A stretch of DNA of 63,903 nucleotides, counting the filler, from Licmophora abbreviata (Eukaryota): the NCBI GenBank assembly GCA_900291995.1. It is 12 parts of 12 records of this genome, joined end to end, with 100 filler letters (N's around TTAATTAATTAA, not from the genome) between each part and the next. Parts side by side here need not be neighbours in the genome. Positions count along the whole stretch, not along the records: positions 1 to 12,069 come from OLMU01004446.1; positions 12,170 to 13,250 come from OLMU01004448.1; 10 more parts are not named here. The stretch is one strand, 5' to 3'. How positions within the stretch are numbered: position 1 is the stretch's first letter; every line of letters begins with the position of its first letter. The notes beneath the pieces are model-generated. The model saw only the letters and a list, made by a program, of their open reading frames with translations. It had not been told where the DNA came from and ran no database searches. Both the position numbers and the translations under genes were made by a program. Of the stretch, positions 6,557-36,002 are shown in pieces.

Positions 6557-9500
6557 TTATACACTTTGGTCGTCAACAGATTCAGAAGGCGGTTCTGTCT
6601 TCGAGGCTTTCTTCTTCAAGTCACCTCGCTCCTCCGCACTTCGCAGAGCCGATAAACTTCGAGCGATCGCCCAATCTGCGGCATCACTCGCTGCCATATC
6701 TGTTGGGAAGAGAACATAGTACAATCGCTTTTAGTCGTGACATCGAAACGATAGTGCACCCGGCATTTCACAAATACACGTACCTGTTGAACCTTCCGTT
6801 TTACTTTGCTCGGCAATTGCCATCCATATTTCTGCTTGAGCAAGGGCATCATGTTCCTCCTTGAGTGCCTTGTCCTTATCAAGGCTGGCATAGCTGTCCG
6901 TATCACTAACTTTCGGAGCGGCTGCCTTTCTTCCTGGAGTTTGCTGGGAAGAAGCCTCGGTCAATGACTCTGCGTCGGCCTTGCTGAAACGACTCGCTGC
7001 GGTAACGACACCAGTCCAATCACCACGGTCGATCATTTCATCGAGCTCCTTCGCTCGCTCGGCATTTACGCCAGATGAGGCCAGTCTTCTTGCTTCTGCC
7101 AGGCGCTCATCGTCTTCCACAAGATTGCTCATCTCGCCAGAATTTTCGGTCGTCTGGCTAGCGTCACCCATCATAGCAGCAGCTTCACCAACAGCCTCCC
7201 AGTCTCCAGCTTCGATTGCCAGCTCAAGCGCAGTCCTCCGCCGCTTGCCACCACCGGAGGGCCGAGACGAGCTCTGTGACGTAGACAACGATGGCGAGGA
7301 GGCAGAGCCTGGGGAGGAGCCACTTCCGCTTCCATGCGAAGCCTCATCTCTCTTCTTGGAGCCTGCTGTTAAGCCAGCCGCTACACCAAGAGCAGCTGCA
7401 ACTCCAGCGCTAACACCAGCGGCGGCAGCTGGGCTGAGACCAACCTCTTCGGTAGCTGGAACCGCAGCTGCTGCAGCCGCTGAAGCGGCAGCAGGAGGAC
7501 CTGCTCCTTGCCTCGCAGAAAGTCGCGCTTCACGTTTGGCGGTCTTCTGTCCAGCGACACGTGCCTTTTGTGCCACAGCTCGCTCCTGCATAGTTCTCAG
7601 GGTCTCCACAAGCTCTTCTTCGCGGCCCTTGAACTGTGTCATCATCTCATCAACATTGTCAATCTCCTCAGGGACGACTCGTCGAACAAGGCTTTCGACC
7701 TCGGCCCGAATCTCTGCTCGCTTCTGAATCTTACTTTGGCTTTCACTTGTTTCACTAGCAGAGAATGCCGACGAGCCAGGCCCCGTACTTGATCTGGATC
7801 CTGATTGAGACTTGCTGCTCCCACCAGAGCGCGACGCGTCCTCTTCTGCGGCCTCGAACTTGGCGGCAGCGAGCACAACGCCTTCCCAGTCGCCGGCGTC
7901 CACAAGGTGATCTAGCTCCGCAGCTCTTGCAGCATCAACCGACGAAACGTTAGATCCTCCAGTCGACGACCCAGTGTTTGATCGACGGCTGCGAGAGGAC
8001 TGCGACTGCGAGTCCGAGCCAGCGGCGAGAAGGGCGGCAGTGGCGCCCACTGCAGCCCAATCGCCTGCTTCAATTGCTGCATCAAGATCGTCACGCGAAA
8101 CGGTTGGGAGGCCAGGAGGTTCACCCTCGCCACTGAGACGTAAGAAAAACAGACACAGACAAGTGGCATGAGTCAGAAGGGGGCACAAAGGCGAAACAAT
8201 TGGTGACGAGCACGAACTTACGGCTTTCCCTTGCCATCACGCGACATGGCACTGGCAACACCAATAGCTGCCAAAGTTGCACCGCCGGCAACTGCGACGC
8301 CAGCTCCACCACTACTGCCTCCATAGTCGAGCGACTCATCGGCACTACCCGTGTTGAGGCTAGACACGCCGGCACTTGATGACCATCCGCTAGACCCAGC
8401 ATTCGAGGAAGATTCTGCGCTTTCGACTCCAACCTCGCGTTCGCCTTCATCGAGCGTGTCAAAAGCTTGCACTGAGCTCTTTTTGCTCCTCTTCCCGTAA
8501 TCGGCCTCCGAAGCACCCAGCTGGGACGCCGCTGCGGCAGAGGCTCCACGGCCAGTGCTTTCCTGAGAGGCTAGAGCTTGCTGACTTGCAAAAGGATCTT
8601 CCTTCTCGTTTCCACGGCGGCGCATGACAAAGAGGCCAGCTGCCGCGAGTACACCAACAACTGCTGCAACGGCGATTCCCGCGGTTGCACCACTGCTCAG
8701 CCCACCATCATCGCCAACAGGCGTGGGGGAAGGCGTGGCTTGGCCCATGTCACTTCCTTGAACGGTCACTCGGGTGTTTGCATCCAACGATACCAGTGCA
8801 TCTTGAAGGCGCCCCTGGTTGATGGCTTTCTCTAGCTCGGCCACGTACAAATCACTGGTCGCGTCCTCATCTTCGTCCGTGGCAAGTGAGATGGATGCCG
8901 TCACGTCGTGGCAGCTAGTTGTATCAGGCAGTTGGTCGGAGCACTCTGATAAGCAAGGTGCAGAAGAGACACAATAGTTAGGAAGACTGAGCGTTTTATC
9001 GCAGTTCGAGAATTTACAGTTGGTACTCACCCTGGTCAATAAACCCCGTCACCGTTGTCGGCAGCGAAACCTTCACCACAAGTCTCCGCCGTATGCGGCT
9101 ACCATTCGGAAATGTCTCGCCTGCCACCTCTACAGCCAAACTGTCCATGGCTTCCTCGAGGAGGGCGGTTTCATTGGCCATCAAGGGGGTTGCTATGCCG
9201 TCTCCAACACTAATCAAGTACGACGTTGACACAGGCACCAATGGGATGCCGGAGGGGGCGATGCTTGGAGACTCTGTGGGAGGAGGTACGGGTGTCGGCT
9301 CTGCGGTGCTCGGTGAAAGGCTTGGTTCCGACGTTGTCGGCGCAATAGTCGGCGACCCGGGCCCAGGGCTGGGACGGTCCGACGGCGATGAACTTGGTGC
9401 AGCTGTCGGTACTTCGGAGGGAGGTGTAGAAGTAGGAGCGTCCGTGGGTGTCTCTGACGGAGCAAAGGTGGGTGCATCTGTAGGGTTGACAGTGGGGCCT

Positions 9501-10038
9501 GCTGAGGGTGTTTCCGTGGGTAGTCCGGTCGGAGAGAACGTTGGGGATTCCGTGGGCTCTGGAGACGGCGCAAACGTTGGCGCAAACGAGGGTGGTATTG
9601 AAGCATTGGCTTGTTCCACAGCGCGAGAAGTCGTTTGGCACACCGTGAAGAGATACGCCGCTTGTTCGTCCGTCGGAGTCTCGTCCGGGCCTGTCCCTAG
9701 GTTCGAGATGTGAGCGTTCTCTCCAACACAGCATCCATTTCCTTCTGCAACCTGGCAAAGACAGGCCAAGGATCGGAACGTAGCTCGAAGCAGGGGAGGC
9801 AGATCGTTGAAGTCGTCTGCGGGCGGGCCTGCATAACCAAAGCCTTCCGCCACAAATATGAACTCGTCGGCAACAATCCGTCGATCGCCGTCTTTATCAG
9901 CGTCAAAAAGAATTGGGTAACATTGTTCTGGGTCGACAAATGGGCCAACTTGCAGCGGTGACGAAGGAAACTGGTCCGCTTTCACCAGGCCAGCGCTAGC
10001 ATTCCCGGAATCAACAGCAGCCATACCAGCCGCATCAT
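6557..10038 (-). CDS. Type-I membrane protein: signal peptide, Cys-rich/EF-hand-like domain, P/S/T-rich linker, TM helix, cytosolic GDW repeats. Exons ~10038-9031, 8945-8222, 8132-6784, 6699-6557; apparent 1-nt frameshift near 9988
   Basis: GT-AG introns at 9030-8946, 8221-8133 and 6783-6700 join the ORF pieces in frame. DADKDGDRRI EF-like loop, TM helix GIAVAAVVGVLAAAGLFVM followed by RRR, stop at 6557-6559. Confidence 0.8.
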
Positions 10039-10985
10039 TGTCGGGGATAAAATAAGGTCTTCCAGACACTTTAAGTAGACTTGATTCGACTGAGAGACAC
10101 AAAGATAAAATGGATTGAACTCCGGAAAACCTGAGATTGTTCAACTTCTCCAAATTCGGAACGGAGACTCTGCAATTCAATGCAGAATCAATCAGGTTTC
10201 ACTCGGTCGCTTTGAGACTTCAATAGGTCGTTTCTGTGACCTAAACACGACCAATGCAGCTAAAAATGATCGCTGATACCGTCGCGGTCGCAATATGGAC
10301 AACAAAAGCAATGGTGGTCCCGCGTTGCAGGGGCTCTTGCACTTTTACACTCCACAAATTTGAGAGAAACACGCGCCCTTTTTGCGGTGGACGATTGCAC
10401 CGTTTTACGTACGATTGGTAACAGTTTCCGTTGAAGCATACTCAGCATACTCAGGTTTGAATGATATAGAATTTTCTGATTGAAGCAATAATGATACTCA
10501 TGGCTTAGTACTGGTAAATCTTGCCACACGAGCTCTGTCTCCATATGGCGCACCTCGCAGACGGGACTGGTACGTCTTCACACGACTTACAAGTTTGAAG
10601 CCTCATCGGCGCGGGTGTGAGCACGATCGATCGTTCATTGATTGCACCGGCGCGTTTAGAAGTTGCAAATCAAATGGTGTACTGGTACAACACTCTAGCT
10701 CGTAGTGAAGCACAACAGGCGTAGCTAAGTGCTTGGATGGAATGAACCTAGCCGACGAGGTCATCGTATCGGAAGCAGCTAGGGGGGGTCTCTCTACTAG
10801 CTAGTAATCCCATCTTCCTTAACTATGATACGGTTACCCGTTGCACGGCGTAGATCCGCGTTCAGCAAGCGCTCCTTGTATAGAAAGGTAGATTCTAGGC
10901 ATGCGTTAACGGGACAAGCTAGTAGGACACATTTCTAAACACACAACGGTAGTAGACAGACAAGCTAAGCCCGCTGTCGCCACTA

Positions 10986-13223
10986 TTATGAGAGGTAGAT
11001 CACAATGGCACTGACATTGTCGGAAGTGCCTTTCTCCAGAGCCATGGAGCATAGCTCCCGCGCAGCTTCATCGGCACTCAAGCCACTGCTGCGAAAGTAT
11101 GTTACGTCTCGACCAACCTCGTCATTGTCCATGACTTCAAACAATCCATCACTAGCCAAGACTATGACACCATTTTCAGTCGATACTGTCGTGACATCCG
11201 GGTCGCTGATTATTCCCATTGAAGTGGCAAATGGTCCCTCGAGAGATCGACTAACAGCGTACTCATAGTCGCCAACAGGTAGGAACCATCGTGATAGACT
11301 ACAGGCTGGCATCGAGTATCCCTGATCTTGTCCACGCTCGAAGCGTTCTATCTCGACCTCAGGCGAATGGTCCCGAGTAGCAAACACGACGCTCCCTTCA
11401 CTGTTCACTAGTAAGGTACGGGAGTCACCGCAGTTCAGAACAGACACCTTTCCTTCTTCCATGGCTACGACAGTCGCAGTGGTTCCAGCAACCAAGGAGG
11501 TTGAACCTGTGCTGGCCGTCAAGGTACCCTCCATCTCATCGTAGTCGGCGGTACACTCGTCTAGCTCGCATCCATCGCGATAAGTGGTGCAGGTAGCATC
11601 CCAAGCGGCTTGTAAGGCTTGGGCAACATTCTTCTGCCTACGAAACTCCTCCATGGCCAGAAAAGGCATGAGCTGTTGCGCCGCGTGTGATGCCGCAGTC
11701 CCTCCGTGCCCGTCAAAGACAGCAGCAAGCAAGACTTCCTTCTCGTCGTGCATTTCTTGCAATATGAACGCATCTTCTTGAGCTTTGCGTCGACCTTTGA
11801 CCGACCAGGCACCTTGTTCCACAACACGAGCGTGGCTCGTCGTCGTTTCTTCGAGGGCCTTCGGCGCCTCCCGGATTGACCGTCTATCAAAGTGCAGCTT
11901 GACGTACTTGGCGGAGGCGGGCTGCTTCTCGAGCTGTGCCAGCAAAGAAGGGGCATGTCAGAAGACATGCTCTCGCAACTCAACGACGAGCGTCAAACGT
12001 CACTTACCATTTCCAAGACCTTTTCAAAGCCACTGCTGGCAAGGGGGAGTTCGCCAACTCCCTGCAGTCNNNNNNNNNNNNNNNNNNNNNNNNNNNNNNN
12101 NNNNNNNNNNNNNTTAATTAATTAANNNNNNNNNNNNNNNNNNNNNNNNNNNNNNNNNNNNNNNNNNNNACATGCTCTCGCAACTCAACGACGAGCGTCA
12201 AACGTCACTTACCATTTCCAAGACCTTTTCAAAGCCACTGCTGGCAAGGGGGAGTTCGCCAACTCCCTGTAGTCGGTCTCCGATTTCGAATATTCCCATC
12301 TTGGCAGCCTGACTGTCCGGAACAATTTTCTGAACAAAAACATCGCCAGACTGAGCGTTCTGTGTTGCCTCCTTCCACCGGAGATCCTCAACTTCTTGAT
12401 CGGCTTCTGCCAAGATCAGTCCCAATGGTAAAGCCCGTCGAAAGGTGGCAACATAGTGAAGCGGTCGAGGGCCCATGGCAGGTCCTTCCGAAGGAATCTC
12501 GCAAGTTTGCATGATTTCCATCACCGAGGCAAAGAAGGGACCGTCCGCCAGCTCTTCTCCTTGACGAATCTGGCGGAATCTAGTGAGTGCAGGGCTGGAA
12601 GCTATTCTCTGCTCGGGGTCCTTTCTCAACATTTCGCTCAGTAGTTTCCAAAGTCCCGGCCGTTCCCCAAAATACTCGAGCGCCTCCTGCAATCCAGACG
12701 GACGAACCTTGGAAGACAGCTCTCTCGACAACCAAGCATCGAGGTCGCAATTGGCATCTTCGACTTGCTGGTGAAAGCCCGCATCCATACGTTCGTCTAA
12801 AAAGTTGAAGATCAACTGACAAATAATCAGTGCAGCTGAAAACACGTCAAACTGAAACGGGGCGCTGTGTGCAGTGATAGGTGTGCGTATGGGTGTGTGT
12901 CAGAGGACAGCCATCGCAACTCAAACAACATGAACAACGAGCGAACAACAAAGTACGAACCGATCGTGACGGATAAAGGTTTCTGGTGCTGCGTATATGG
13001 GAGAGACTGCCACACGTCCTTCATCTTCAAGTCCCACCCGTTTCTTTCCTCCCCAAAACTTGTTGGACTTGATCGGATCCATGTCGGCTGTCGGCGGGAG
13101 GAAACAGAAGGAAAGGGCAATGTTGGTATCACCATCACGCAACGACCCCCCTCTTTACTGACGACCTCGAAACGGCGTTCTTCCACACGTACCTGCAGAC
13201 CCAAAATCAATCAGCACCAGTGA
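10986..13223 (-). CDS. STN7/Stt7-like protein kinase (C-lobe visible; N-lobe lost in gap) + PDZ-like domain + PP2C phosphatase. Exons 13223-13193, 13087-12961, 12864-12213, 11933-10986
   Basis: Spliced reading LVLIDFGSAADM...SPIYAAPETFI...FDVFSAALIICQLIF...MLRKDPEQRI. PDZ-like PLGLIL...VQKIVPDSQAA...IGDRL. PP2C motifs QEDAF, VFDGHGG, NCGDSR, VSRSL, LASDGLF, GTSDNVS. All introns GT-AG. Confidence 0.8.
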
Positions 13224-13717
13224 CTGCACAGAGGTCACACACAGAGAAGGNNNNNNNNNNNNNNNNNNNNNNNNNNNNNNNNNNNNNNNNNNNNTTAATT
13301 AATTAANNNNNNNNNNNNNNNNNNNNNNNNNNNNNNNNNNNNNNNNNNNNCGAACAGCAACACGGGCAAGGTGAGCAGCGCTGCTGCCGATGAAGAGAGA
13401 CAGATGACGACGAGAGAGATATCGAGAAGTTAAAATGGGAGAGCGCGACGGACCTCGCGACTATTGATGTTCGACCGAGTTATTAGAGGGAGACTTGAGT
13501 GAGTCAAGTCTCAGGACGTCGCGGAAAAGCCAAATTGGACAAAGGGTATACGTCGTTACGTCGTGTCACATCGACACGTTAAGCCGGGGTCTCAAAGTTG
13601 CTAGCCTGCCTTTCCATCCTTACCTAGTCTACAACTATTCGCTGTCTGGGACAAACCTGAGGATTGCGAAAGCTTGACTCTGATACAGATCCCCAATGAG
13701 CCAGGAGGTTGACCCAA

Positions 13718-15295
13718 TTACACTCGTCCATCAAGCCACGTGTCGATCAAAGTTCTGGCCAGCACACCTTTGGGTGGTATCAGCAGCTCGATGCTAGGAT
13801 CCGCTTGTATCGCTGCTTCTGCAACTTCTCTTCGCATGACGGCACCCGGTACGGTCGCGGCCATCCCGACTTGGGTCCTATCGAACCATGTCGCCTCGAC
13901 CAGTTCGTCTCTATCAATGTCAAGAGCTTGCGCCTCGTCCGCTGTCGCCGAAAATCCAATCATGATGCTCTGAGGAAAGGGCCATGGCTGGGAGCCAATG
14001 TAGTTAACAGAGGACTCGTCAATACGAATGCCAGTCTCTTCATAAACCTCTCGTGCGACTGCCTTTTCGAAAGTCTCGCCAGCTTCCACGAATCCGGCAA
14101 GAGCCGTGTGCATTCTCGCGGGATGGCGAGGAGACCGAGCCAACAGGACACGTTCCTTGTCACGACTCATGATCACGGCAATCATGGAGGGGTCCTGGCG
14201 AGGCCAGGACTGCTGGCCGCATCCGGTACATTTACGACTCGTGCCTCCGTCAATCAGATTGGTAGCAGAACCACATACCGGACAAAAAGGTGCTCGGCGT
14301 TGCCATTGTGCGAGCGCTGTGGCATGTAGGACCAGTTCGTTGTGAATGGGAGATAGCAAGGGCGCTCCGGTTCGCGTATCCCCAAAGTCGGCTCCTCCTG
14401 AGACTTTCGCGGCTGCCGCGCGGACTGCGTCCGGGTCGCTGGCATGCAGATCGACTCCAAAAACAGCTTCTTTGCTATCAAGCAAACCAAGGAACGTCGT
14501 GACTGATTCTGAACCAGTCTCCTGGCAAATAGAATCTACCTGTTCCTTACTTAGCTTAGCCAGTTCCCAGCCCTCGAAAAATAGGGCCTGGTTACCCTGC
14601 AACACAACGTACTTGGCATCCTTTGCAAGTTCGTCAAGTCTTGCTGGGTTGGAGCGCAATTGAGTGGCGCGGTCCAAATGTCTACCAGATGCCTCTTCCT
14701 GCGCTAGCCCTACCGAATTGAGAAAAGCGGAGTCCGCAATGCCAGTATGCAGCGCGTCAAGGGCTAGATCAGCTGCCTTGTCAGCAAACAGCCGCATATT
14801 CTGTACGCGGTCGGCGTGCGTCGACCGTATCACGTCCTGTTTGACAACTTTGACACTACCGTCATAATCTCGAGCTGCAATCGCAATCGCTGCAAAACCT
14901 CGGTCCAGCCCGTTCGGTCGAAATGTCGGACCCGCTGCTCCTCCTTCTGCAATCGCAAAGTCGGTTCCAAGTTCTTTGCAGAAGGCCACTGCTGTCTTGC
15001 TCGTCCAGTCCAACTTGGAGCGCACATATCGATCGGCATCACTCTCAGCTCCGCCATTGGACTCAAGCGGTGCCACCAGGGCATCATGCAGTTTGCCATC
15101 ATTCAACAAGAGGGGCTTGGCGCGGCGGGTATTGTAGGCCACGGACCCGCCAAAAAACACAGAGGATGAGCCCGGCACGGCCATGATGGACGCGTTGATG
15201 AGGCCACCGCAACAGCTTTCCACGACTGTACATGTCGCTTTTTTGTATTTGAGGGCTGAGACTAGCCGCAAGAAGCTAGGAGAGGTAAGGGACAT
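13718..15295 (-). CDS. Fusion of a CinA/PncC-like (NMN deamidase-type) domain and NudC-type NADH pyrophosphatase (Zn ribbon + Nudix)
   Basis: N-terminal VESCCGGLI, VPGSSSVFFGG, AEGGAAGP. C-terminal CPVCG...CTGC Zn ribbon, Nudix box GFVEAGETFEKAVAREVYEETG and NudC signature SQPWPFP. One uninterrupted 525-aa ORF. Confidence 0.88.
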   Translation of the reverse strand: MSLTSPSFLRLVSALKYKKATCTVVESCCGGLINASIMAVPGSSSVFFGGSVAYNTRRAKPLLLNDGKLHDALVAPLESNGGAESDADRYVRSKLDWTSKTAVAFCKELGTDFAIAEGGAAGPTFRPNGLDRGFAAIAIAARDYDGSVKVVKQDVIRSTHADRVQNMRLFADKAADLALDALHTGIADSAFLNSVGLAQEEASGRHLDRATQLRSNPARLDELAKDAKYVVLQGNQALFFEGWELAKLSKEQVDSICQETGSESVTTFLGLLDSKEAVFGVDLHASDPDAVRAAAAKVSGGADFGDTRTGAPLLSPIHNELVLHATALAQWQRRAPFCPVCGSATNLIDGGTSRKCTGCGQQSWPRQDPSMIAVIMSRDKERVLLARSPRHPARMHTALAGFVEAGETFEKAVAREVYEETGIRIDESSVNYIGSQPWPFPQSIMIGFSATADEAQALDIDRDELVEATWFDRTQVGMAATVPGAVMRREVAEAAIQADPSIELLIPPKGVLARTLIDTWLDGRV

Positions 15296-15539
15296 GGCAA
15301 TACAGGAAGGTTCCGTCCATGTCGCCAGAACACTGTGATGTNNNNNNNNNNNNNNNNNNNNNNNNNNNNNNNNNNNNNNNNNNNNTTAATTAATTAANNN
15401 NNNNNNNNNNNNNNNNNNNNNNNNNNNNNNNNNNNNNNNNNCGACAGGTCTACCTGACGACTATGCAATCTTGAATCGACTCCATCAGCCTTGACGCAAG
15501 TTCTCAAACTGGGATTGCAGCGGTACTGACTCAAATTAG

Positions 15540-25649: not shown

Positions 25650-27944
<2,295 letters not shown>

Positions 27945-34427: not shown

Positions 34428-36002
34428 ATGAGCAAGTGGCTGAAGAAGGGAAATTATCAACAACACGAAGATAACGGAAACCACCAAGAACACTTTACGC
34501 CTCCCGCAACGACGACGACTGCTCCAATGTCTACCCCGACGACCGCTACAACCCCAACTGGCTATGCATCGCGACCGTCAGCGCAGCCTCACATTGTTTC
34601 TTACGGTGCTCAATCACAAGGAGACGTTGCTATGGATGTGGATGGCCAGGATGAGCGACGCGGTAGTAGGAATCGCCAATCGTCTCAGGTTCATCAGTAC
34701 GCCCACGGTTCCAATGGGGCGGCGACGAATGGCAGGGCTCGACANNNNNNNNNNNNNNNNNNNNNNNNNNNNNNNNNNNNNNNNNNNNTTAATTAATTAA
34801 NNNNNNNNNNNNNNNNNNNNNNNNNNNNNNNNNNNNNNNNNNNNCGTCAGTCGAGCGCTGCTCCGCTGCAGTATCACTACCGACCGCAAGCGGCAACACC
34901 TGCCGCCGCTGCGACCAATTCTCCCGCACAGCAGTTCTCGCCCCCTCAGGCGCCGCCGCTACAATACAAGACGCCTGCTACTCCGTCTCCCTCGGAAACC
35001 ATCCAGCCTAGCTTCCCACCTGCAGCAGTCACTTCAGACTCTCCTCCGCAGTCACAGCCAGCTCAACGGCGCCCGGCGTACTTGCTTCATCGCGACTTAG
35101 TGATTGGAAAAGGATCTTACGGGCAAGTCTGTATCGCGTCCCGGGGCGAGCCAGAAGGCCACTCGTCGGGGCGGTCGGGCAAGCGAAAGAAGTTTGCGTG
35201 CAAGTGCGTCATGCTTCGGAATGATCCAAAGTACATTTCCAAGCTACAAGAGGAGGTGAATGTGCTGCGGGAGCTTCGTGGGCACACCAATGTCATCCGA
35301 CTTTACGACGTCTTCTGCGTCGACAATGAACTCTTTATAATAACTGAACTCGGTCGAGGTGGTGATCTGTTTCACTTGCTTACGACACATCCAAAGCACG
35401 GTGTGACTGAGTCGTACGCTGCCAAGACGGTGGCGGAGATGCTGTCGGCTGTCGCCTTCCTTCATTCGCGCAGTATTTGCCATAGAGATCTCAAACTGGA
35501 GAACTGGGTGTTGGAGTCGGGCAAGGATGTATGGAGTCCGCTGAAGCTGATTGACTTTGGTCTGTCGACGCACTTTAATCCTGGCCAAAGGCTGAGCCGT
35601 GTCGTGGGGTCGTCGTACTATGTGGCACCTGAAGTCTTGAAGAAGTCTTACACAGAAGCTTGTGACCTATGGAGTCTCGGCGTTATTGTATACATGCTTC
35701 TGAGTGGAGCGCCTCCCTTTTATGGAAAGAACGACGAAGCGATCAAAGCCTCTATTGTACAGGGAGAGTACTCGTTTCCTCAAGAGCTCTTTCGCGATGT
35801 GTCGGACGAAGCCATGGCGTTTGTTTCCACTCTTTTATCTTACAACATAGAGTATCGATACACGGCGGGTCAAGCTTTGACTCATCCATGGCTGGCTAGC
35901 AATCTTGATCCGGAATTGCTGCAGAAGACTAAAGACGGTGCGCAGGGAATGGGTGTCCTGCCGAGTGACCCAAATGATAGATTGGAACCCATGCAACTGT
36001 AA
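34428..36002 (+). CDS. CAMK/CDPK-like Ser/Thr protein kinase with a low-complexity N-terminus (spans gap 34745-34844); no EF-hands visible
   Basis: GKGSYGQV, FACK, HRDLKLEN, IDFGLS, VGSSYYVAPEVL, CDLWSLGV; ORF ends shortly after HPWL. Confidence 0.88.

Follow-up and report, generated by a model that had tools for sequence, protein, structure and literature searches.

Whether a protein kinase and a phosphatase are encoded together as one polypeptide is the question raised by a gene on the minus strand (positions 10986 to 13250) of a stretch of DNA from the diatom Licmophora abbreviata. The stretch, hereafter the window, comprises 63,903 nucleotides, filler included, of GenBank assembly GCA_900291995.1; its initial annotation had described in this gene a kinase resembling the thylakoid kinases STN7/Stt7, a PDZ-like domain and a PP2C phosphatase. 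Judging from alignment with homologues, we established the structure of the gene, the presence of the three domains in one frame and, across the family, the integrity of the catalytic residues in kinase and PP2C alike. We consider it likely that this nuclear gene belongs to a conserved ochrophyte family of soluble proteins, in which a bipartite presequence for the plastid would be followed by a Ser/Thr kinase, a PDZ domain and a PP2C, the whole acting as a one-protein phospho-switch.

Gene structure and domains of the Licmophora locus

The gene consists of four exons and three introns, all of which start with GT and end with AG, and its stop codon lies at positions 10986–10988. The spliced frame comprises 594 codons without a stop or a frameshift and is colinear with diatom proteins of 800–1000 residues. 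When the spliced protein was aligned to 10 homologues, the alignment was unbroken at every junction, including the one between KVLEM and LEKQP that splits the PDZ domain, and conservation was even across the kinase, PDZ and PP2C parts. The single frame, obtained after splicing three GT-AG introns and collapsing a false gap, and the succession of kinase subdomains VII–XI, PDZ domain and PP2C in one polypeptide were therefore as first proposed. The nearest homologues share about 64–68% identity with the window protein, the best values being 66–68%, so this species' own protein is absent from the searched collection.

The kinase part present in the window starts immediately ahead of DFG and continues to where the C-lobe ends, and the motifs LIDFGSAAD, SPIYAAPE, FDVFSAAL, DLDAWL and GLWKLLSEMLRKDPEQRI were read directly. 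These include the DFG and APE motifs, and subdomains VII–XI of Pfam PF00069 are represented. The Pfam kinase profile gave no match with the exon pieces of the window alone; the same pieces align at full length to proteins that score 66–96 bits with Pkinase. In an alignment of 46 fused relatives, Pkinase and PP2C were matched in all 46, the G-loop, catalytic Lys, αC Glu, HRD-Asp, Asn and DFG-Asp were invariant in 46/46, and the Asp and Gly motifs of PP2C were also among the invariant columns. The PP2C of the window itself (Pfam PF00481) scored 96.3 bits (cut-off, 20.3) in a match to positions 7–255 of the 255 in the profile, with the metal-binding and other motifs RRKAQED, DGHGG, GDSR, SDGLFEV and SDNVS.

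The assignment of the PDZ domain is supported by homologues that match the PDZ profile (Pfam PF00595) at the same position. The protein P0143 scored 27.3 bits and 10 more distant relatives scored 25.5–36.5 bits (cut-off, 23.2), and PDZ was matched at E-values up to 0.1 in 25 of the 46 aligned fused proteins. In an AlphaFold model of the closest relative, a protein of 838 residues (predicted local distance difference test score, pLDDT, 87.4; predicted template modelling score, pTM, 0.79), this region contained strands at residues 442–448, 455–459, 482–487, 504–508 and 534–540 and helices at 492–496 and 518–527, with pLDDT values of 76–93. This predicted pattern of strands and helices fits a PDZ domain. 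A Foldseek search with the whole 838-residue model listed PP2Cs only; the kinase and the PP2C filled the fold-search lists and the PDZ domain was unrepresented. Conserved Cys residues adjoin the αC Glu and also occur in the PP2C and in the linker that separates the kinase from the PDZ domain, from which one might guess that the protein is redox sensitive.

All exons were delimited by the open frame and by alignment to homologues. Exon A, which is partial (13193–13250), covers the last part of the catalytic loop region up to DFG (..LCVTSVQSLVLIDFGSA) and ends in phase 1; the junction across intron 1 (13088–13192; 105 nucleotides, GTACGT...ACAG) restores LIDFGSA followed by ADMDP, as in the homologues. 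Exon B (12961–13087) encodes the activation segment up to APE (ADMDPIKSNKFWGGKKRVGLEDEGRVAVSPIYAAPETFIRHD). Intron 2 (12865–12960; 96 nucleotides, GTTCGT...ACAG) was placed by its splice sites and by homologue spacing, and the pair 12960/12865 was preferred because this spacing favours it over an alternative in-frame pair (donor 6 nucleotides downstream, acceptor at 12852) that would drop three residues. Exon C (12213–12864) begins with the kinase C-lobe, subdomains IX–XI (12552–12864; FDVFSAAL, FHQQV..CDLDAWL and GLWKLLSEMLRKDPEQRI), as aligned to homologues. It continues with the linker from kinase to PDZ (12468–12551; DGPFFASVMEIMQTCEIP..), which was placed by alignment and contains a family-invariant Cys; both models have low pLDDT values where this linker ends. 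Its last part encodes the N-terminal four fifths of the PDZ domain (12213–12467; RPLHYVATFRRALPLGLIL .. GELPLASSGFEKVLEM), as placed by profile, homologues and model, with the carboxylate-binding-loop motif PLGL at 12428–12417. Intron 3 (11934–12212; GTAAGT...ACAG), recognized by its splice sites, measures 279 nucleotides as assembled. Exon D (10989–11933) starts with the last PDZ strand (11880–11933; LEKQPASAKYVKLHFDRR), as indicated by alignment and model, and then encodes the PP2C (10989–11825; GRRKAQED, FDGHGG, NCGDSR, SDGLFEV and SDNVSAI), assigned from the Pfam profile and motifs, down to the C-terminus ..VIYLS. The stop codon, TAA, was read in the sequence.

Two gaps affect this gene. 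The gap at 12070–12169 is flanked by the same 105 bases, positions 12274–12170 being duplicated as 12069–11965 with 104 of 105 bases identical and a single synonymous difference in a Leu codon (CTA/CTG). The duplication on both flanks indicates that this gap is false and that the true length of intron 3 is about 74 nucleotides. It looks like two unmerged contig ends, perhaps of two alleles.

The second gap (13251–13350) consists of two runs of 44 N flanking a 12-base linker. All 11 gaps in the window share this form (44 N, TTAATTAATTAA, 44 N), so the fixed length of 100 bases is uninformative about the missing sequence. The initial annotation had let the first exon begin at a CAG acceptor at 13224. 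This start was not upheld, as the nine codons from 13223 to the gap edge at 13250 are open, in frame and aligned ungapped to the stretch preceding DFG in homologues (the tblastn match starts at 13244), and exon A therefore probably starts inside the gap. The N-terminal halves of homologues had no tblastn match anywhere in the window, where the only other kinases are two unrelated ones at 25.6–27.8 kb and 34.8–36.0 kb. The proposed loss of the N-lobe in gap 13251–13350 thus held as far as its absence from the rest of the window is concerned, and its place in the gap is presumed. Some 215–245 codons are presumably concealed by the gap, judging from homologues, and these would comprise the start codon and presequence as well as the N-lobe as far as the HRD loop.

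It may be asked whether the gene is instead a decayed or truncated copy with a dead kinase half, the gap being empty or its edge codon, a Pro at the position of the relatives' invariant Asn, being real. About 370 bases separate the gap from the stop codon of the upstream gene, with no N-lobe within them, and this, together with the Pro, fits such a copy. However, the 594 codons are free of stops and frameshifts, conservation is even over the three domains, the length of the gap carries no information, and the other gap of this gene, close by, is a demonstrable assembly fault. We consequently regard decay as highly improbable, and the Pro at the gap edge may be a contig-end error or part of an intron. 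As for reads, just two read contigs over 12170–13250 were found, of 183 and 168 bases and from one run, and neither bridges the gaps or passes the ends.

Directly upstream of the gap (13351–13429, minus strand), a frame containing a hydrophobic, signal-peptide-like stretch (..SSSAAALLTLPVLLF) runs into the gap. This stretch resembles the leaders of the closest relatives and has no in-frame ATG; the last 130 bases before the gap contain no ATG at all. The upstream neighbour (13718–15385, minus strand) is an open reading frame (ORF) of 540 residues with CinA, rudimentary NUDIX-like, NADH pyrophosphatase zinc ribbon and NUDIX matches, and it runs into the gap at 15342–15441. On the other side, positions 9014–10198 (minus strand) hold an ORF of 394 residues with a long Pro/Thr/Ser-rich repeat region, which matches the PT repeat family weakly. 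No Pfam match was obtained for ORFs on the plus strand across the gene, and no Rfam family was found in positions 10000–14000.

A kinase-PDZ-PP2C family in ochrophytes

When longer proteins were searched with exon C, 91 relatives were retrieved, and a search with the region from DFG to the end of P0003 retrieved 103 family members and one outlier. All named matches were from diatoms, namely Seminavis, Nitzschia, Fistulifera, Pseudo-nitzschia, Cylindrotheca, Amphora, Astrosyne, Ditylum, Thalassiosira, Conticribra and Skeletonema. Kinase and PP2C motifs were both present in 83 of 151 family proteins. Among long, more distant representatives from the whole-library search, 11 of 12 contained Pkinase, PDZ and PP2C, and fused members outside the diatoms were found in Chrysoparadoxa australica (PX clade) and Rhizochromulina marina (Dictyochophyceae). 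The search of algal proteins for the same architecture that the initial annotation had suggested was therefore positive. A separate group of about 500 residues, including P0144, contains the kinase and the PDZ domain and lacks the PP2C. As judged by these sequence comparisons, the fusion of kinase, PDZ and PP2C is conserved across diatoms and two other ochrophyte classes.

The remaining family models bear on the possibility that the fusion is an artefact of gene models, the kinase-PDZ and PP2C parts being neighbouring genes or separate transcripts. Such a view could draw on the 61 of 151 models that contain the kinase without the PP2C, and also on the fact that no RNA run was found for this species. 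However, 34 of these 61 models stop a few residues past ..GFEKxxxM with V-S or V-R, as would result from reading through into a GTA/GTR intron at the position of intron 3 of the window, and another 17 stop just past RRxxQEDxF with G, at the second intron (10 end otherwise). Since 51 of the 61 end at read-throughs of two conserved introns, most kinase-only models are truncated gene calls. Moreover, intron 3 lies inside the PDZ domain, so that separate genes would cut this domain in two; no stop or start occurs between the domains in the window; and four transcripts of the Marine Microbial Eukaryote Transcriptome Sequencing Project (MMETSP) that are marked complete, from four diatoms, encode both enzymes (P0032, P0061, P0080 and P0121). 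An artefact of this kind is scarcely credible. The two intron positions, inside the PDZ domain after ..EM and after RRxxQEDxF, are widespread in the diatom family proteins P0001–P0152.

Databases have given the family automatic names, such as "linked kinase-associated serine/threonine phosphatase 2C", "protein kinase GAF family protein" and "cGMP-dependent protein kinase", and a look-up of the kinase part in the ESM Atlas returned generic kinase clusters only. Fusions of a kinase with a PP2C are already known, and a plant kinase/PP2C protein exists. For diatoms and other stramenopiles, no published account of a protein that joins kinase, PDZ and PP2C was found in the full-text literature searched, which excludes most subscription journals. 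In Phytophthora infestans, a kinome table lists four eukaryotic protein kinases with PP2C as accessory domain (excerpt of PMC3019232). These resemble the present family in carrying kinase and PP2C in one chain, but belong to the AGC, CAMK and OTHER groups, have no PDZ domain between the enzymes and are not plastid-directed as far as that excerpt states.

Kinship of the kinase and the phosphatase

To which known kinases the family is related was analyzed with a sample of the Stt7 family, obtained by back-translating the motif DLGAAADLRxGxNY. This motif is found in STN7, and its core was invariant in 19 of 19 aligned ORFs. The sample comprised at least 120 metagenome loci, many of them with long intron-free ORFs, a G-loop and HRD. 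As positive controls, two fetched ORFs of the Stt7 family matched the structure 4ix3 (Micromonas MsStt7d) as the only strong solved kinase, with 99 and 120 bits, and a profile built from 19 such ORFs gave 4ix3 220 bits.

In structural comparisons with the template-free model of the relative P0004, 4ix3 was first in Foldseek (E 5.7e-12; the next match, 2.2e-10) and in VIA (Z 29.0, root-mean-square deviation 2.9 Å over 297 residues; the next match, 23.1). The profiles pointed in the same direction in both senses: complete diatom proteins scored 90–102 bits and P0144 110 bits with the Stt7-family profile (best other solved kinase, 80.8), and ORFs of the Stt7 family scored up to 97.9 bits with the diatom profile (median 74.4, minimum 42.8; best other solved kinase, 73.6). 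A profile-profile alignment covered 277 columns at 26% identity, including F(R/H)(R/Q)xL..(Y/F)DL..W and GW/LW..L, as a single pair with no calibrating family. A search with P0144 against 1.84 billion representatives gave 25,466 significant matches, and 5 of 148 further proteins scored from the best 150 of these belonged to the Stt7 family according to the family profile (201–444 bits).

These likenesses could mean that the gene encodes a true STN7/Stt7 orthologue fused to a phosphatase of the TAP38/PPH1 type, running state transitions in diatoms. Such a protein would be expected to have a Stt7 homologue as its best structural match, as was observed, and the two families indeed share G(S/A)AAD, within an Ala-rich stretch, after DFG/DLG, the C-lobe segment F(R/H)(R/Q)xL..(Y/F)DL..W and GW/LW..L..M; both are also Ser/Thr kinases that are, or in this family are predicted to be, plastid-directed, as holds for Stl1/STN8 as well. 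However, true members of the Stt7 family match MsStt7d alone (99–120 bits, and 220 bits with the profile), whereas diatom proteins reached at most 102 bits with that profile and MsStt7d did not appear among the 60 solved structures that the diatom kinase matched best. The DLGAAADLR motif and the insert of about 30 residues after APE (Pro/Ala-rich, before helix F) are absent, the fused family having DFGSAAD and the window DFGSAADMDP. A hydrophobic anchor about 50 residues before the G-loop (Kyte-Doolittle 19-residue value, KD19, of at least 1.6) was found in 0 of 40 fused relatives versus 12 of 26 Stt7-family ORFs; a Cys pair before the kinase, present in 5 of these 26, is likewise lacking in the fused relatives. 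In the fused family, in turn, the N-lobe contains an additional helical insert bearing two conserved Cys, and a PDZ domain and a PP2C follow the kinase. Excerpts of PMC3525998 and PMC10089185 state that diatoms have no homologues of STN7/STN8 or STT7 and no state transitions. A fused orthologue of this kind appears very unlikely.

We constructed a quick tree from 77 kinase domains, rooted on two unrelated kinases of this window. One of these (25653–27809, minus strand) is an SNF1/AMPK-type kinase with a Pkinase match of 250 bits and adenylate-sensor and KA1 domains; the other (34845–35999, plus strand) is a CaMK-like kinase with a Pkinase match of 204 bits that adjoins the gap at 34745–34844. 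The diatom clade had a support of 99, and its sister was P0143 (support 96). The kinases that bear a PDZ domain all formed one group with a support of 91 in the Shimodaira–Hasegawa-like approximate likelihood ratio test (SH-aLRT), which other algal kinases adjoin at 92 and 93, and the Stt7 family was outside this group. The group thus includes the P0144 proteins (about 480–520 residues), which share with the fused proteins the same type of kinase followed by a PDZ domain and an N-terminal hydrophobic leader, but are without the PP2C.

The kinship with STN7/Stt7 that the initial annotation had proposed accordingly stands as a distant one, seen in the top structural match to 4ix3 and in reciprocal profiles, and not as membership, since the Stt7 motif, insert and anchor are absent and the kinase has a clade of its own. 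The phylogeny that it had called for gave a similarly divided answer: the kinase grouped with other PDZ kinases and not with the Stt7 family, and a joint grouping of the two was not rejected by the approximately unbiased (AU) test (p 0.127). We read the family kinase as a separate branch of a wider group of STN-type kinases, not as an orthologue of STN7/Stt7.

Among the best 150 matches of P0144, P0240–P0299 include more algal kinases with DFGSAA(A/D)M, which score 100–135 bits with both profiles. EF-hand or WW domains lie behind the kinase in P0250 and P0281. These DFGSAA(A/D)M kinases suggest that a broader group of kinases, as yet undescribed, surrounds the STN family. According to an excerpt of PMC10089185, Phaeodactylum has a soluble plastid kinase, LSK (Phatr3_J50052), which is ABC1-like and restricted to unicellular algae; a light-acclimation phenotype has been published for it. 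Weak ABC1 matches were obtained in 39 of 46 family members, and the family may be related to LSK, which we note as a lead.

In the green lineage, the phosphatases TAP38/PPH1 and PBCP are separate proteins that oppose STN7 and STN8; they share with the present PP2C the fold, the metal-binding Asp motifs and a presumed plastid location. Compared with solved structures, the PP2C of the window matched PPM1B best (70 bits) and HAB1 with 59 bits, while TAP38/PPH1 (4yzg and 4yzh) scored 29 and 28 bits over 72 residues, ranking 51–52 of 53, and PBCP was not among these 53 solved matches. The TAP38/PPH1 type was rejected on these grounds (29 bits, rank 51/53), which also tells against the fused orthologue considered above. 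Likewise, the structure of the PP2C part of a relative was closest to HAB1, ABI2, OsPP2C50 and PPM1B in Foldseek. The family phosphatase is an ordinary PPM and not a relative of TAP38.

Predicted location, mechanism and significance

In diatoms, a signal peptide followed by Phe, Trp or Tyr (a bipartite presequence of the ASAFAP type) is the pattern of plastid import, and the aromatic pattern is reportedly that for import into the stroma (said to go back to Kilian and Kroth in 2005 and Gruber et al. in 2007 and 2015). We applied a simple script, not a trained predictor, to the 101 relatives that begin with Met and have 40 or more residues ahead of the G-loop. A hydrophobic N-terminal core was present in 86 of the 101, and in 78 the core was followed just behind by a small residue and then F, W or Y. 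By eye, most relatives read ..A/S/G-F.. or ..A-W.. directly after the core. Plastid import of the family proteins is likely from these N-termini. A second hydrophobic segment between residue 31 and the G-loop was found in none of 40 fused proteins, and the mature protein should therefore be soluble.

The family could also be real and act outside the stroma, in the periplastidial compartment, the endoplasmic reticulum and secretory path or the cytosol. The N-termini without a clear hydrophobic core (15/101) or without the aromatic pattern (23/101), and the home-made nature of the test, speak for such a location; the A/S/G-F or A-W right after the core in most members, which is the pattern reported for stromal import, speaks against it. 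We consider it unlikely.

If the proteins are imported into the plastid stroma, as would be predicted from the Phe or Trp that comes after the signal peptide of relatives, the PDZ domain might dock them on a partner by binding its C-terminal tail or a motif within it, and the kinase and the phosphatase would then set the phosphorylation of the same local targets. Alternatively, the PP2C might reset the activation segment of its own kinase, as clade A PP2Cs do on SnRK2. In that system (e.g. 3ujg, SnRK2.6 with HAB1), the PP2C sits on the kinase and resets its activation loop, which is a known mode, and HAB1 and ABI2 are top structural matches of the family PP2C; it differs in that kinase and phosphatase are two separate cytosolic/nuclear proteins under a hormone receptor (abscisic acid). 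The outcome in either case would be a one-protein phospho-switch, in a family that would represent a separate, anchor-less branch of STN-type plastid kinases and not an STN7/Stt7 orthologue paired with TAP38. The plastid switch originally suggested is thus supported by the N-termini of relatives as to its location; a role in state transitions is unsupported.

Several points weigh against the reading as a plastid phospho-switch of STN-type descent. The window itself lacks the N-lobe, its catalytic Lys, HRD loop and presequence falling in the gap, and the codon at the gap edge is Pro where relatives have the invariant catalytic-loop Asn. Its PDZ domain scored 13.9 bits (E 0.072), under the cut-off of 23.2, and its C-lobe alone found no solved kinase at E up to 10. 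When solved structures were searched with the diatom kinase or with a 25-model kinase-PDZ profile, the best 60 matches did not include 4ix3 and were led by CIPK24, GSK3, MELK and MAPKs. The tree had two outgroup kinases only, and the AU test, in which the group was named after the tree had been seen, failed to reject the diatom and Stt7 families as one group (p 0.127), so that the branching order within the superfamily is tentative. The targeting script is crude, and the aromatic pattern may fall inside the hydrophobic core. Finally, with no RNA run found for this species, expression, location and activity in Licmophora abbreviata are extrapolated from relatives, and the mechanism, be it shared targets or self-reset, is drawn by analogy.

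For annotation, these results explain many kinase-only database models as truncations by intron read-through, and they flag two assembly faults in this gene. As to the biology, protein phosphorylation in diatom plastids is largely obscure, and STN7/STN8 of the green lineage are said to lack a diatom counterpart (excerpts of PMC3525998 and PMC10089185). The family, which is probably plastid-targeted and has a kinase nearest to Stt7, is thus a concrete candidate that could be knocked out in model diatoms and studied by phosphoproteomics. Tentatively, and as one possibility that we would not yet favour, it may represent an ochrophyte plastid-directed sister lineage of STN7/STN8 that lost its anchor and became hard-wired to a PDZ domain and its own PP2C, serving as a writer/eraser in red-lineage complex plastids, for example in light acclimation. 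With a kinase, a docking domain and a phosphatase in one chain, the family offers a test case of how opposing activities on one scaffold may set the level of phosphorylation.

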